DNA of 46,701 nucleotides from Candidatus Altiarchaeota archaeon (lineage in GTDB: Archaea > Altiarchaeota > Altiarchaeia > IMC4 > JBDREA01), in contig JBDREA010000117.1 of the NCBI GenBank assembly GCA_043820265.1, forward strand, positions 1 through 46,701, read 5' to 3'. This document shows, piece after piece, positions 39,780-46,203 of this stretch. Made by a program: the position numbers and the translations under genes. The notes beneath the pieces were generated by a model. That model worked only from the letters and a program-made list of their open reading frames with translations, ran no database searches and was not told the origin of the DNA. Every line of letters starts with the position of its first letter. The first letter of the stretch is position 1.

Positions 39780-40205
39780 ATGAATTCTTTTGCCCACATA
39801 TTTGTGTCAATCCTGATTGCCCTGCAGTTTACTGACGACCCTCGGTTGATTTTTTTTGCGTGTCTATTCGGTGTGTTGCCTGACTTTGACCATATAGGCC
39901 ATTTGCCGGGGGCTATTAGGACCGGAAGGTTTGGCCCAGGGTCTAGGTCGGTTTTCCATGAATTATCTGGTCTTTCATTTTTTTGTTTTTTTTTGATCTT
40001 TTCTGGCAGCTTATTTCCGATACTGTTTTTTCCGTTGCTCGCTCACTATTTGTTGGATTACCTAGGGAGGCCTACAAGGCCTTTTTTCCCGTTCAATAAA
40101 TCTGAGCTTCATGTTGGGCTTTATCCGAGTTCCATTAAGTGGATGAATATTGTGGAGGTGCCTTTGACGTGTCTTTTAGCGTTTCTGACTTTTTTGTTTT
40201 GGTAG
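39780..40205 (+). CDS. Membrane protein, DUF457/YdjM-like putative metal-dependent hydrolase
   Basis: N-terminal AHIFVS, LPDFDHI and a later FHE..G motif, with four hydrophobic segments. Confidence 0.5.
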   Translation: MNSFAHIFVSILIALQFTDDPRLIFFACLFGVLPDFDHIGHLPGAIRTGRFGPGSRSVFHELSGLSFFCFFLIFSGSLFPILFFPLLAHYLLDYLGRPTRPFFPFNKSELHVGLYPSSIKWMNIVEVPLTCLLAFLTFLFW

Positions 40206-40772: not shown

Positions 40773-41201
40773 ATGCCAGGTGAAGTTGGAAGACCAAGGA
40801 AAATCGACAAGATGAGCGCATCAATCACAGTGCGCCTACAAAACAAAGAGTTGGAAAATTTTAAAAAACTCTGCCAAGTAGCGAAAAGAAAACCCGCCGA
40901 CATCATCAGAGAATTCATAAGGGGGAAGATCACCGAAAACCGCCCCGAACTAATATCGCGGTTCTCTGCTGACGACGCAATCCAACCTATAGTAGGGGCA
41001 ATAACCTACAGATACAACCAAAAAACCGAAAAAATCGAAAGCCACGGCGTCACAGATGAAGGCGACGACATCCTCCTAGAAGTGCATGAACCAGAACACA
41101 TCGAAGAAGACATAAGCCACATGTACGAGGCATATCAGAAATACATTAGTTCGCAAAAACCCCATGACAGGCGAATGCCCAGAAAGATTCATAGGATTTG
41201 A
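40773..41201 (+). CDS. Ribbon-helix-helix (CopG/Arc-like) DNA-binding protein with an uncharacterised C-terminal half
   Basis: ITVRLQNKELENFKKLCQVAKRKPADIIREFI fits the RHH strand-helix-helix pattern. The start is moved to ATG 40773, because the ORF-track start is a TTG inside an AT-rich promoter-like region. Confidence 0.6.
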   Translation: MPGEVGRPRKIDKMSASITVRLQNKELENFKKLCQVAKRKPADIIREFIRGKITENRPELISRFSADDAIQPIVGAITYRYNQKTEKIESHGVTDEGDDILLEVHEPEHIEEDISHMYEAYQKYISSQKPHDRRMPRKIHRI

Positions 41202-42046
41202 CTGGAAGTCTTAAAGTGGACCTTCGCCACCTTTTCTAAAACACCTTGACCATGGGAAGAAACTAAAGACTTTGCCGCTTCCAAGGCATTGTTTCCTGAG
41301 CCCCCAGGTAATTCAAACCCATATTTTTCTCCTAAAAGCTTCCGTTCCTCCAAGTACCGAGACCTTGCAAGAACGGATGCGGCAGCCACAGCCAAGTCCA
41401 CTTCAGCTCTAGGCTTTTGAACCAATTCAATAGTCCTGCCTTTCGCCATTAACCTGTCCAAAAGAAAATGTTTTTCCCCGAACTGATCTGAGATAACCAA
41501 TCCACAATCGACTTTCTCAAGAAGGTTTTCTATGACTCTCGCATGAGCCCAGGAAAGAAGCTTGTTTAAGTTCTTGATCTCTTCGTACAGCGAGTTATAT
41601 CTTTGTGGGCCAATCGAAACCTCATCATAGACACAGCATTTTCTCACTTTATCTGCGATTTCATAAATCCTGCCATCCTTGAGCTGCTTAGAATCCCTTA
41701 CACCACATAACCTAAGCTGAGACTCCTCCGTATTACTGACATACACACCGGCCACGACGAGGGGGCCGAAGAAATCGCCTTTGCCGGATTCGTCAGTTCC
41801 AATATGAGAGATAAAAGGTTGAGCATCCTTCTGATGTAGAGAGTTCATGATCTTATCAATAACCAAGTCAACATCCCCCCCTTGGATGACCAATTTACCG
41901 GACTTGTAGAGAATAACTGTAAGTTGGTCTTTTTTTGCAGAAAAAAATGCGTGATCAACTTTACTGAAATAAAAACCTTGATCTTTAAGATAGCCTTCGA
42001 GAGTTCTACGAACTTTTAGATCAAGTTGCAGCACGCGTGACGTCAT
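41189..42046 (-). CDS. rnhC: Ribonuclease HIII
   Basis: N-terminal TVILYKSGKLVIQGG (the RNase HIII-specific N-domain), GTDESGKGDFFGPLVVAGV, GVRDSKQLKD, DQFGE and LAVAAASVLARSRYL...LPGGSG...HFKTS align closely with the remembered B. subtilis RnhC. ATG at 42046; the ORF-track start is a TTG one codon upstream. Confidence 0.85.
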   Translation of the reverse strand: MTSRVLQLDLKVRRTLEGYLKDQGFYFSKVDHAFFSAKKDQLTVILYKSGKLVIQGGDVDLVIDKIMNSLHQKDAQPFISHIGTDESGKGDFFGPLVVAGVYVSNTEESQLRLCGVRDSKQLKDGRIYEIADKVRKCCVYDEVSIGPQRYNSLYEEIKNLNKLLSWAHARVIENLLEKVDCGLVISDQFGEKHFLLDRLMAKGRTIELVQKPRAEVDLAVAAASVLARSRYLEERKLLGEKYGFELPGGSGNNALEAAKSLVSSHGQGVLEKVAKVHFKTSSQIL

Positions 42047-42061
42047 CAAGAGAAGAATAGG

Positions 42062-42096: not shown

Positions 42097-42360
42097 TTAC
42101 AACCGCTCAATGCCAACCTTTTTTACCTGTGGCTCCTTGATCTTGTCCGGAAGCCATGAGGGCTTGTTGGCGGGTGCGCTAACTTCTTTAACAGATCCCG
42201 TGAAGACGTGAACTTTTTTTGTCCCCCGTTCCCTGAGCTTTATGCTCTTGAATCCTCTTCGGGCAGCCTTCAATGCGGCCTGCCTGGGCTGTTTTCCGGA
42301 AAAGATGTGTTCTGTGTCTTTTCCGCTTTCCATCAATACAAAATACTTTTTGTCTGCCAT
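42097..42360 (-). CDS. Chromatin protein MC1
   Basis: FSGKQPRQAALKAARRG...IKLRERGTKKVHVF...P.NKPSWLPDKI..P.VKK is nearly collinear with the remembered Methanosarcina MC1 (FTGKQPRQAALKAANRG...IRLRERGTKKVHVF...). Confidence 0.9.
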   Translation of the reverse strand: MADKKYFVLMESGKDTEHIFSGKQPRQAALKAARRGFKSIKLRERGTKKVHVFTGSVKEVSAPANKPSWLPDKIKEPQVKKVGIERL

Positions 42361-43561: not shown

Positions 43562-43618
43562 AAAAAGCTTTTATATCATTCTTGTTAATAGTTTTATAAA
43601 AAACCTTAGAGGTATATC

Positions 43619-43999
43619 ATGTCCGATCCTTTGTTCAACTTAGCCTTAACGACTTGCATCGTCGGCCTACTTCTCTTGTCATATGCCGGACAAACATTAA
43701 CACCAGCAAAAATCAGGCTAAAAGATATTAGCATAGAGGATGTCGGAAAAAACATATTAGTCTCAGCTGATGTGTCTGAGATACACCAGTTTGAAGGCGG
43801 CTCAATCCTCCTTACCATAACCGGGGACAACTCCTCGATGAAAACATATATACCCTACCACGTATCAAAGGAAATTAAAATTGACATAGAAGAAATTGAA
43901 AACTGCACTCTTGAAATACTTGGCGAGCTCCAAACCTACCAAGGAGAACTCGAACTCGTCGTAGCAGACATTGAGGATATAAAAATCGAAAAATGTTAG
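43619..43999 (+). CDS. Membrane-anchored OB-fold (tRNA_anti-like nucleic-acid-binding) protein
   Basis: N-terminal TM LALTTCIVGLLLLSYA, then the typical OB pattern ILVSADVSEI....GGSILLTITGDNSSMKTYI...LEILGELQTYQGELELVV. It overlaps the next gene by 7 nt. Confidence 0.6.
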   Translation: MSDPLFNLALTTCIVGLLLLSYAGQTLTPAKIRLKDISIEDVGKNILVSADVSEIHQFEGGSILLTITGDNSSMKTYIPYHVSKEIKIDIEEIENCTLEILGELQTYQGELELVVADIEDIKIEKC

Positions 44000-44787
44000 T
44001 CTCCGCTTCAACTCTAAGTGAATACAACTTCTGCCCAAGGGCAATCTATCTTAGAAAGTCCCTGGGCTTCGGATCCGAGAAAACCGAAAAGATGCAGGAA
44101 GGCCTAATGAGCCACTTAGTAAGAAAAGAGCTTTCGCTGAGACAGGCAAAGATCATAAGGAGGGTGAAGGACGTCGAAGAAATAGGTTTGCTTCTCAATC
44201 GCGAGCTCGCCCAGATAATCAAAGAGATTCCCACCATCTACAAGGAGAGACTGGAGGGAATGGACGCTAACAAATTGCTTGCCAAAATCGAAGGAGACAT
44301 AAAAAATGAGCTACAATTCCAAGAAGAGCACTTGGCTGTAATGGTGGACGAACTCGGTTTAAAGGAAACGCTCACCTACATCACTCCCTGGAAGGTCGAA
44401 TACCCGCTAAGATCCGAGATACTCGGACTTTCAGGTCGCATCGATAAAATCTATCGAAACGAAAGCGAATCCTATCCCGTCGAGATAAAAACCGGCACCG
44501 CCCCAAAAGAATACACGTGGGAGGGAGACAGGATCCAAGTGGGCGCCTATGCTCTGCTCCTCGAGGAAAAACTCGCCCAAACCATAAGATACGCCAAAGT
44601 CGAATACACCCAGTCAATGGAGCAAAGGCCGGTGAACATAACCGAAAAACTCAGAAGACTAGTATTCGAAACAAGAGACAACGTAACATACATATTAGAA
44701 GAAAAAATAATCCCCGAAATCTGCGTCCACGGCCAAGGGAAAAAATGCCACAACTGCGGATACAAAGAAAAATGCTACAGCATGTGA
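43993..44787 (+). CDS. Cas4-family / RecB-like PD-(D/E)xK nuclease with a 4-Cys Fe-S cluster (solo, no CRISPR-cas context)
   Basis: N-terminal SASTLSEYNFCPRAIYL, the nuclease core GRIDKIY....YPVEIKTG, the QVGAYALLL (Q..Y) motif and the C-terminal C-x8-C-x2-C-x5-C (CVHGQGKKCHNCGYKEKC). Confidence 0.8.
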   Translation: MLVSASTLSEYNFCPRAIYLRKSLGFGSEKTEKMQEGLMSHLVRKELSLRQAKIIRRVKDVEEIGLLLNRELAQIIKEIPTIYKERLEGMDANKLLAKIEGDIKNELQFQEEHLAVMVDELGLKETLTYITPWKVEYPLRSEILGLSGRIDKIYRNESESYPVEIKTGTAPKEYTWEGDRIQVGAYALLLEEKLAQTIRYAKVEYTQSMEQRPVNITEKLRRLVFETRDNVTYILEEKIIPEICVHGQGKKCHNCGYKEKCYSM

Positions 44788-44836
44788 AACGAAAAAAGCG
44801 TTTTATAGAAAACGAAACTCGGTGACTAGACGATTA

Positions 44837-44941
44837 TTATTTTTTCCTACTTAGTTTGTACCCTAAGATTATTGCTGCCACTACAACGATCCCTCCGATA
44901 ACCACTGAGCTGAACTCGGGTGCGGGAATTACTTCAATCAT
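44837..44941 (-). CDS. Possible 34-aa single-TM micropeptide (MIEVIPAPEFSSVVIGGIVVVAAIILGYKLSRKK)
   Basis: Translated by hand. ATG with GGAG about 10 nt upstream, a hydrophobic core and a basic end. It is below the ORF-track length cutoff. Confidence 0.3.
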   Translation of the reverse strand: MIEVIPAPEFSSVVIGGIVVVAAIILGYKLSRKK

Positions 44942-45045: not shown

Positions 45046-45249
45046 CTAGACTTCGGCTTTTTCTTTCACTTTATAAAGTCTAGTAATTGTGCCTGCTATC
45101 TTGTTTCTTATTCTCTTGTTTATCCCGATATCTAAGTGCTCTTGTATCTTGCTTTTGTTTTTTTGGAAGTCGGCGTTGAAGTCTTGGGGGTAATCCTTTA
45201 GAAGCTTCACTGCAACGCGTTTCAGATACGTTTGTTTTATTCGGCCCAT
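45046..45249 (-). CDS. rps17e: 30S ribosomal protein S17e (eS17)
   Basis: MGRIKQTYLKRVAVKLLKDYPQDFNADFQKNK....RNKIAG.ITR matches the archaeal S17e pattern. Confidence 0.9.
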   Translation of the reverse strand: MGRIKQTYLKRVAVKLLKDYPQDFNADFQKNKSKIQEHLDIGINKRIRNKIAGTITRLYKVKEKAEV

Positions 45250-45267: not shown

Positions 45268-46203
45268 TTAAGACAAACTCCTATATAAATTCGGTTGAGG
45301 TCTGCCGGCTTCAACGAAGGCCCGGCCGAGTCCGTATCCGATGTTCGTCGACAAACGGCTTAGGAGGTCTAAAAGGTGCTGCTCGGGTTCTGCCCGTTGG
45401 ACTTTGGGTTTGCCTCGGATTTCTCCGAGTTCAGCTGCCAGATCGATTGCGGCCTCCAAACCACCCAATTCGTCTACTAGACCCAACTCCTTTGCCCTTG
45501 AGCCCAGATAGATGCTTCCGTCGCTGATCGATCTTGCGTATTCAAGGGAGAAATTCCGGTTTAAGCTGACTTCTTCGACAAAGTCGTCGTTGACGTCGTC
45601 TATGAGCTTCTGAAACATGGCATGTTCCTCTTCGGTCATCGGCCGATAGGGGCTTCCAGAATCCTTGTAGGTTCCGCTCTTTATCGTTGTGGTGTTTATT
45701 CCAAGCCAGGAAAATAGGTCGTAGTAGTGCGAAAGGCTCATGATGACGCCGATTGAGCCTGTGATGGAGTCTTCGTCTGCGACGATCAAATCCGCACCTG
45801 ATGCGGCGTAGTAGGCCCCGCTTGCGCCGGCTTCCCCTATCCATGCGACCACTGGTTTTTTGGTTGCTTTAACGGCCCGGGTCAATTCCCGGCTTGCAAC
45901 GACATAGCCGCCTCCAGAGTTTATTTCCAACACAATGGATTTCACAGAAGAGTCTTCGTCGGCCTCTTTTAGGAGGTCTTTGATGGTGTCCACGTGGGCG
46001 CAGCTTGGACCCCCAAAAGTCGTGGGGCAGCCTTCCATGGTGATGACTCCCTTCACAGGGATGACAGCCACTTTGTCGCCGAAGACATAGACTTCATCGA
46101 GAAAACTAGCAAGAAAAAAGATAAGCGCAGCGATAACGATAACGGAGAATACAACCAGCAAAGCCAACGCCATCTTCCACTTATTATCCAAAGTATACAC
46201 CAC
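45268..46203 (-). CDS. sppA: Signal peptide peptidase SppA (S49 family, 36K type)
   Basis: LEINSGGGYV, GASGAYYAASGAD, GSIGV and KDSGSPYRPMTEEE blocks. The ORF-track start is GTG 46203; ATG 46173 (MALALLVV...) is an alternative. Confidence 0.85.
   Translation of the reverse strand: MVYTLDNKWKMALALLVVFSVIVIAALIFFLASFLDEVYVFGDKVAVIPVKGVITMEGCPTTFGGPSCAHVDTIKDLLKEADEDSSVKSIVLEINSGGGYVVASRELTRAVKATKKPVVAWIGEAGASGAYYAASGADLIVADEDSITGSIGVIMSLSHYYDLFSWLGINTTTIKSGTYKDSGSPYRPMTEEEHAMFQKLIDDVNDDFVEEVSLNRNFSLEYARSISDGSIYLGSRAKELGLVDELGGLEAAIDLAAELGEIRGKPKVQRAEPEQHLLDLLSRLSTNIGYGLGRAFVEAGRPQPNLYRSLS

Follow-up and report, generated by a model that had tools for sequence, protein, structure and literature searches.

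A membrane-anchored OB-fold protein and a solo Cas4-family nuclease encoded by a conserved gene pair in one order of Altiarchaeota

We analysed a 46.7-kb stretch of DNA (46,701 nucleotides, referred to as the window) from a Candidatus Altiarchaeota archaeon (assembly GCA_043820265.1, contig JBDREA010000117.1). The window is a whole contig, C117 in our numbering, and the view of the locus ends at the contig ends. The metagenome-assembled genome (MAG) to which it belongs has 1.97 Mb in 172 contigs and is 82% complete. Two overlapping genes of the forward strand encode a small membrane-anchored protein with an OB fold and a solo Cas4-family nuclease (Table 1). The lengths of both open reading frames (ORFs), their coordinates and the overlap of seven nucleotides are exactly as claimed in a first-pass annotation of this DNA.

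The junction of the two genes is ATGTTAG, with the cas4 ATG at 43993-43995 and the TAG stop codon of the OB gene at 43997-43999. A spacer of 57 nucleotides lies upstream of the OB gene. It contains a TATA-like box TTTATATC (43570-43577), a second A/T box (43592-43603), and GAGGT (43609-43613), five nucleotides ahead of the ATG. These may be the archaeal promoter and the ribosome-binding site of the operon.

Table 1. Genes and features at the OB-cas4 locus and downstream of it, in window coordinates
Feature	Position	Strand	Basis
Gene of membrane OB-fold protein, 126 amino acids (aa), single-pass	43619-43999	+	ORF
Gene of solo Cas4-family PD-(D/E)XK nuclease, 264 aa, four-cysteine iron-sulphur (Fe-S) site	43993-44787	+	ORF and profiles
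N-terminal transmembrane helix, OB protein residues 4-26, read as signal anchor	43628-43696	+	AlphaFold2 and hydrophobicity
OB barrel, OB protein residues about 40-126	43736-43996	+	AlphaFold2, Foldseek, conservation
Putative promoter and ribosome-binding site region	43570-43613	+	Inferred from sequence alone
Hydrophobic ORF, 34 aa, not supported as gene	44837-44941	-	ORF
rps17e	45046-45249	-	Pfam; convergent to cas4
sppA (signal-peptide peptidase)	45268-46203	-	Pfam; convergent to cas4

The product of the first gene is a single-pass membrane protein with an OB fold of the tRNA_anti type. The window copy is weak in Pfam (PF13742, E-value 0.094, 13.4 bits, under the cut-off), but PF01336 matches 16 of the 21 orthologues with E-values of at most 0.001. 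The AlphaFold2 model (predicted local distance difference test, pLDDT, 92.6) has a helix spanning residues 4-26, followed by a barrel of five strands with another helix between strands 3 and 4, as in the tRNA_anti type (PF01336/PF13742). Foldseek matches the model to the anticodon-binding OB domains of class IIb (aspartyl-, lysyl- and asparaginyl-) tRNA synthetases and to RPA32, with E-values of about 1e-5. Thus the initial call of an OB fold survives both the profile and the structure searches, despite the weak score of the window copy.

The alignment of OB orthologues contains an invariant G16 in the transmembrane stretch and a P29-P30 pair after the helix. The conserved residues of the OB domain are H56, F58, G60-G61-S62, Y77, Y80, G102, Y107, G109 and E112. 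In the model they appear to fall on loops L12 and L45 and on the end of strand 3, that is, on the customary ligand face of OB domains. The family profile detects the gene in 59 of 61 Altiarchaeota genomes, almost always as a single copy.

The second gene scores well above the cut-offs of the Cas4 profiles: 98.1 bits for TIGR00372 (cut-off 65) and 57.4 bits for PF01930 (cut-off 22.7, E-value 2e-15). There is also a weak match to PF08696. Residues C14, D151, Q182, Y186, C252, C255 and C261 are invariant in the alignment of 21 orthologues, and E164 and K166 are conserved in at least 90% of them. All motifs named in the first-pass annotation, the RecB-type D...ExK core, QxxxY, the N-terminal cysteine and the C-terminal CxxCx5C, are present in the window protein and conserved across the orthologues. 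Four cysteines, C14, C252, C255 and C261, are predicted to bind a 4Fe-4S cluster. By the residues present, the gene encodes a catalytically intact Cas4-family Fe-S nuclease. Orthologues with substituted ExK were found at L055:4995-5771 (genome G006, LxN), L004:1869-2663 (G001, TxR), and L016:1871-2650 (G023, VxK); all three retain the four cysteines and the aspartate.

The AlphaFold2 model of the nuclease (pLDDT 92.2) contains a helical arch, roughly residues 25-130 (about 100 aa), that accounts for its extra length over classical Cas4. When known folds are ranked against this model, the Dna2 nuclease domain comes on top (template modelling score by query 0.62-0.66, about 300 columns). CRISPR Cas4, AdnAB, an Argonaute-associated Cas4 relative, MGME1 and Exo5 are further matches. 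In Dna2, the helical arch makes single-stranded DNA thread in from a free end. The Dna2-like arch of the modelled Cas4 suggests threading of free 5' single-stranded ends.

No array of spaced repeats (CRISPR) was observed in the window, and neither Cas1 nor Cas2 was found in the 82%-complete MAG, whose only Cas4-family match is the window nuclease. Among the genomes of the order, long solo Cas4 occurs in 48 of 49 and Cas1 in 11 of 49. In the Cas1-bearing Altiarchaeota, Cas1 is encoded on a different contig from the solo Cas4 and is adjoined by a separate short Cas4 of 189-223 aa. In a quick maximum-likelihood tree, where long branches were flagged, 30 solo Cas4 from Altiarchaeota form one clade (support 93 in the Shimodaira-Hasegawa-like approximate likelihood ratio test, SH-aLRT), genus mates cluster, and three CRISPR-linked short Cas4 of the same phylum fall outside. 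The window nuclease is a vertically inherited, CRISPR-independent solo Cas4. Its initial description as solo is upheld by the tree, where it groups apart from the CRISPR-associated copies, by the window without arrays, and by the genome-wide search for Cas1 and Cas2.

Two tandem, overlapping, long-form solo Cas4 genes encoding 263 and 259 aa were observed at L059:2710-4280 and also in L058 and L060. The MAGs with these tandem genes are labelled Thermococci and Methanomicrobia, and their proteins are the nearest relatives of the Altiarchaeota Cas4 clade. There is no OB gene nearby. The possibility that solo Cas4 stands in for NurA was ruled out, as NurA is present in most of the Cas4-bearing genomes considered here.

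The OB gene and cas4 are adjacent and lie on the same strand in 39 of the 47 genomes of the order that have both. Stop and start codons overlap in 17 of 20 loci read in detail, mostly by four nucleotides. These overlaps mark OB and cas4 as a translationally coupled operon, one that is conserved across the order. The usual arrangement is rpl40e-OB-cas4 convergent on rps17e-sppA, and in 19 of 24 loci the OB gene directly follows the L40e gene. In the genus of the window rpl40e, the ancestral upstream neighbour, has been relocated to another contig, and the OB-cas4 pair is intact. The rps17e and sppA genes flank cas4 across the order, also where the OB gene has moved away. Genome G006 has no OB gene altogether and retains cas4 beside rps17e. 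In one locus (G005:C111:1845-2746) about 900 nucleotides are inserted between the OB gene and cas4. The rpl40e-like gene was also considered as a split-off zinc ribbon of the multi-OB relatives described below. This was ruled out, as it passes the L40e cut-off and is the sole L40e gene in the window's genome (G000).

The orientation of the OB protein was predicted from the charges flanking its helix. In 17 of 21 orthologues they predict that the N-terminus is inside and the OB domain outside; there are three ties and one reversed copy. The same was observed in a wider set of the best 144 relatives in a library of 1.8 billion proteins: the 123 relatives with one N-terminal helix have a more positive N-terminal flank in 88 cases and the opposite in 15. 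Relatives with N-terminal tails of at least 20 residues mostly (48 of 56) have a CxxC...CxxC zinc ribbon and basic K/R residues ahead of the helix, followed by 4-7 tandem OB domains. A zinc ribbon in this place would be expected in the cytoplasm, which puts the OB array outside. In other relatives the N-terminus is either a lipoprotein-like leader or a signal peptide with a thioredoxin-like domain behind it, and OB paralogues linked to the TctA permease have strongly basic N-terminal tails or lipoprotein-like signals.

The frequency of N-glycosylation sequons was considered as well. The OB domain contains 1.40 sequons per 100 aa (28 seen, 13.5 expected) at recurrent positions; the Cas4 partner contains 0.31. 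Among the window's proteins, those that lack a hydrophobic N-terminal segment mostly have 0-0.5 sequons per 100 aa, and three of those with a signal-peptide-like N-terminus have 1.8-5.3. It is quite likely from all these patterns that the OB domain lies outside the cytoplasmic membrane. Altiarchaeales are reported to possess two membranes; given these, the OB domain would sit in a periplasm-like space.

The first-pass annotation had proposed that the nuclease is tethered through its membrane-bound OB partner. This does not agree with the orientation of the orthologues (17 of 21), of the wider family (88 against 15) and of the zinc-ribbon relatives (48 of 56), nor with the fact that the genes are separable. 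Solo Cas4 probably stays in the cytoplasm, since it lacks an export signal and depends on an Fe-S cluster. The predicted topology leaves only about four residues of the OB protein in the cytoplasm, too few for a tethered complex with a cytoplasmic Cas4 when the OB domain is outside. Prediction of a complex from the OB and Cas4 alignments gave a score of 0.01 (mark 0.32), which was counted for neither side. A membrane anchor and translational coupling do not by themselves imply a tether if one soluble domain is outside the membrane and the other inside.

Many of the closest OB relatives from outside Altiarchaeota (P0030-P0141) have the architecture of a zinc ribbon (CPSCGRFVGP...CPYCGA), basic residues, one helix, and 4-7 OB domains, sometimes with Pro/Thr-rich linkers. 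For similar zinc-ribbon multi-OB proteins, a structure row of a protein atlas suggests Chloroflexota. Weak DUF4131 matches were observed in multi-OB relatives and in one protein-atlas row.

A possible function of the OB protein is suggested by the genetics of natural transformation. In Methanococcus maripaludis, deletion of the single-helix OB gene MMJJ_13020 or of the adjacent TctA-like gene MMJJ_13030 abolishes transformation, and complementation restores it; a TctA-like homologue is essential also in Methanoculleus thermophilus (PMC10133366). In five Altiarchaeota genomes from three genera (G010, G020, G022, G030, G038) the OB gene abuts a TctA-family permease gene, and the two genes overlap in all three loci examined (genera g9 and g17). 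Both g17 genomes that were read have a second, lipoprotein-like OB gene in front of the OB-TctA pair. In Thermococcales-like genomes, one operon combines the gene of a membrane-anchored protein whose roughly 990 aa include seven OB domains of this subfamily with those of a TctA permease of 443 aa and of a YdjM-family membrane hydrolase of 465 aa that carries an OB insertion. The operon was found at L093:3284-8979 (G064), L094:2891-8613 (G101) and L095:6431-12261 (G086), with overlaps of four nucleotides. Of 61 Altiarchaeota genomes, 53 have a single copy of TctA. The genome of the window is among them; here TctA stands alone on contig C58 with no OB gene adjoining. By its architecture and the linkage of its gene, the OB protein probably belongs with the single-helix OB proteins of TctA-linked archaeal transformation. 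The initial suggestion of DNA uptake or processing at the envelope is therefore supported in part: the single-helix OB and TctA genetics of M. maripaludis (PMC10133366) speak for the process, but not for the tether as its mechanism.

The second OB proteins, encoded at L052:5366-5800 (G022) and L053:5372-5806 (G020), have a lipoprotein-like leader (GGGC) and a cysteine-rich insert. In G086, an additional S/T-rich OB protein with a signal-peptide-like N-terminus is encoded upstream of the operon. A small YdjM-like membrane protein (PF04307, 26-28 bits, just below the cut-off) is encoded in the window itself at 39780-40154 on the forward strand, 3.5 kb ahead of the OB gene. About five YdjM-like paralogues exist in the genome, and the nearness to the OB gene may be due to chance.

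The reading that we prefer, although it stays a little short of an even chance, is that the OB-cas4 pair links archaeal DNA uptake to intracellular DNA processing, with Cas4 handling the imported DNA. On the outer side of the membrane, the OB domain would capture nucleic acid from outside the cell and pass it to the TctA-like permease. In the cytoplasm, Cas4 would thread the free 5' single-stranded end and trim the incoming DNA or degrade it. The single operon would match the amount of the receptor to the processing capacity. It is unlikely that a DNA nuclease is found beside a DNA-uptake-type receptor by chance. A more specific proposal is that solo Cas4 is the cytoplasmic processing nuclease of a ComEC-independent uptake route, consisting of the outward OB receptor and the TctA-like permease, and is hard-wired to the receptor gene in Altiarchaeales; this we regard as rather doubtful.

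Several observations weigh against a role of the pair in uptake. The two genes can be separated: the OB gene, TctA and YdjM occur without this Cas4 in two other families of the class, G057 excepted. The OB gene of genera g9, g17 and g22 has moved to TctA, and cas4 is kept beside rpl40e, in g17 directly after it. The functionally unrelated neighbours rps17e and sppA are conserved equally well, and thus adjacency is weak evidence of shared function in this order. The ExK motif is altered in the OB-linked Cas4 of G001 and G023, and thus nuclease activity is not retained everywhere. The genes listed in the M. maripaludis screen (PMC10133366) include no Cas4-like gene, and the tie of the OB protein to MMJJ_13020 is drawn from architecture and from TctA linkage in relatives. 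Finally, the only copy with the reversed charge distribution is the window's own OB protein, in which three basic residues follow the helix and none precedes it.

The pair may accordingly be a matter of synteny, with Cas4 a housekeeping repair or recombination nuclease acting on 5' ends, a role assumed for other vertically inherited solo Cas4 of archaea, the OB protein having a separate role in the envelope, and both genes belonging to a slowly rearranging rpl40e-OB-cas4/rps17e-sppA block. This explanation is plausible, if somewhat on the improbable side. It agrees with the conservation of the whole five-gene block, unrelated genes included, with the occurrence of OB and Cas4 each without the other, and with the overlaps, since overlaps of four nucleotides are common between unrelated neighbours in compact archaeal genomes. 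It also agrees with G006, which lacks OB, TctA and YdjM genes and keeps cas4 beside rps17e. The solo-Cas4 tree broadly follows taxonomy, which matches the vertical, 'regular gene' evolution described for archaeal solo Cas4 (Hudaiberdiev et al. 2017, PMC5704561). On the other hand, the pair stayed intact although its upstream context changed in the genus of the window, a nuclease and a DNA-uptake-type receptor make one theme, and NurA, being present in most genomes, leaves no obvious resection gap for Cas4 to fill. Moreover, the Cas4 of G006 has LxN for ExK and R for Q of QxxxY, which hints at decay after the loss of OB and TctA. However, this is one case only, from a single-contig genome with masked parts, and it is weakened by G001. 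Joint loss in G006 was therefore downgraded as proof that Cas4 depends on OB and TctA, as the ExK changes of G001 and G023 occur with the OB gene linked.

Two other explanations place the pair at the membrane or in defence. In the former, the OB domain would face the cytoplasm (N-terminus out, C-terminus in) and recruit Cas4 to the inner face of the membrane as a complex. The basic residues after the helix in the window copy fit this orientation, translational coupling often goes with complex formation, and the gene order OB-cas4 recalls the domain order of Dna2, where the OB domain precedes the nuclease. Nevertheless it seems very improbable, as the topology predicted for 17 of 21 orthologues and for the wider family is the reverse, relatives of the zinc-ribbon, signal-peptide or lipoprotein type put the OB domain outside, and this domain is rich in sequons; separability of the genes argues against it as well. 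In the latter, Cas4 co-expressed with the uptake receptor would destroy foreign DNA at entry, as a restriction step independent of CRISPR. A part in uncharacterised defence has been suggested for solo Cas4 of small-genome archaea (PMC5704561), and a Cas4-like nuclease is reported to lower plasmid transfer or maintenance in Synechococcus elongatus (PMC10653904). The locus, however, is a stable housekeeping block among ribosomal-protein genes and not a defence island, and its evolution is vertical. PADLOC finds matches to Cas4 models and weakly to DruK of Druantia (E-value 4e-5 or weaker), with no partner genes. We consider defence at entry very improbable, and retain the link between uptake and processing as the preferred reading.

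The remaining features of the region were considered separately. The first-pass annotation noted a 34-aa hydrophobic micropeptide convergent to cas4. The ORF exists, but no convincing relative was found in 30 related genomes, and cas4 and rps17e abut or overlap in relatives, including those of the same genus, leaving no room for it. As the 258-nucleotide gap that contains it is missing in relatives, the micropeptide was rejected as a conserved gene and is not counted as part of the feature. Nor is this gap between cas4 and rps17e a mobile element: it is not a copy of the genome's repeats, and a 271-nucleotide stretch is single-copy in the genome. Elsewhere in the window, a gene for the MC1 chromosomal protein (PF05854, E-value 6e-30; 42097-42360, reverse strand) adjoins a gene for RNase HII that carries a DUF3378 domain at its N-terminus, like RNase HIII (41189-42049, reverse strand). 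MC1 is known chiefly from Methanosarcinales and haloarchaea.

Solo Cas4 is found in most archaeal genomes without an assigned function, and an OB-cas4 operon maintained across an order suggests handling of incoming DNA. Transport of DNA across the membrane in archaea is known only by the genetics of 2023, through a single-helix OB protein and a TctA-like permease. If the uptake role is true, it would be the first concrete role for solo Cas4 and would name a missing component of archaeal transformation. If the link is only syntenic, this is an ordinary locus, where a nuclease of a known kind lies beside a recognised, little-studied envelope family.

The window Cas4 can be compared with several known systems. 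With the archaeal solo Cas4 surveyed earlier it shares the Cas4 profile, the location away from CRISPR, vertical inheritance, and the occurrence in small genomes mostly without CRISPR-Cas; the word OB-fold occurs nowhere in that survey, and no membrane-OB operon is mentioned there (PMC5704561). The characteristic D...ExK and QxxxY motifs and the four Fe-S cysteines are shared with SSO0001 (PDB 4ic1) and Pcal_0546 (PDB 4r5q). The window protein is about 50-60 aa longer than these two, due to the helical arch, and its fold is nearer to the Dna2 nuclease domain. The core and the Fe-S cysteines align with those of Cas4 from CRISPR adaptation (type I-C, PDB 8d3l; type I-G Cas4/Cas1 fusion, PDB 7mi4), whereas the window gene is not beside cas1, cas2 or an array. 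The nuclease domain of eukaryotic Dna2 (PDB 5ean, 5eax, 5eaw) has a similar helical cover over the active site and an Fe-S site. However, the window Cas4 is only a quarter as large, lacks the superfamily 1B (SF1B) helicase domains, and has neither an OB nor a beta-barrel domain fused to it. It is no orthologue of Dna2.

The partner protein invites comparison with bacterial-type competence. Its anchoring and predicted orientation resemble those of ComEA, a small, N-terminally anchored, outward-facing DNA receptor, but ComEA is a helix-hairpin-helix protein with no sequence relationship. ComEC combines an outward OB domain (DUF4131) with a channel and a nuclease domain. The latter is of the metallo-beta-lactamase type, whereas the nuclease here is a separate cytoplasmic PD-(D/E)XK protein, and the locus has no ComEC competence domain. 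The closest analogue is MMJJ_13020, which, like the window OB protein, has one N-terminal membrane helix and one OB domain of the PF01336 type. MMJJ_13020 adjoins a TctA-like gene, whereas in the window TctA is on another contig and the OB gene is coupled to solo Cas4 instead. Thus what differs here is that the gene of a receptor apparently of the transformation type is wired to a solo Cas4 rather than to TctA.

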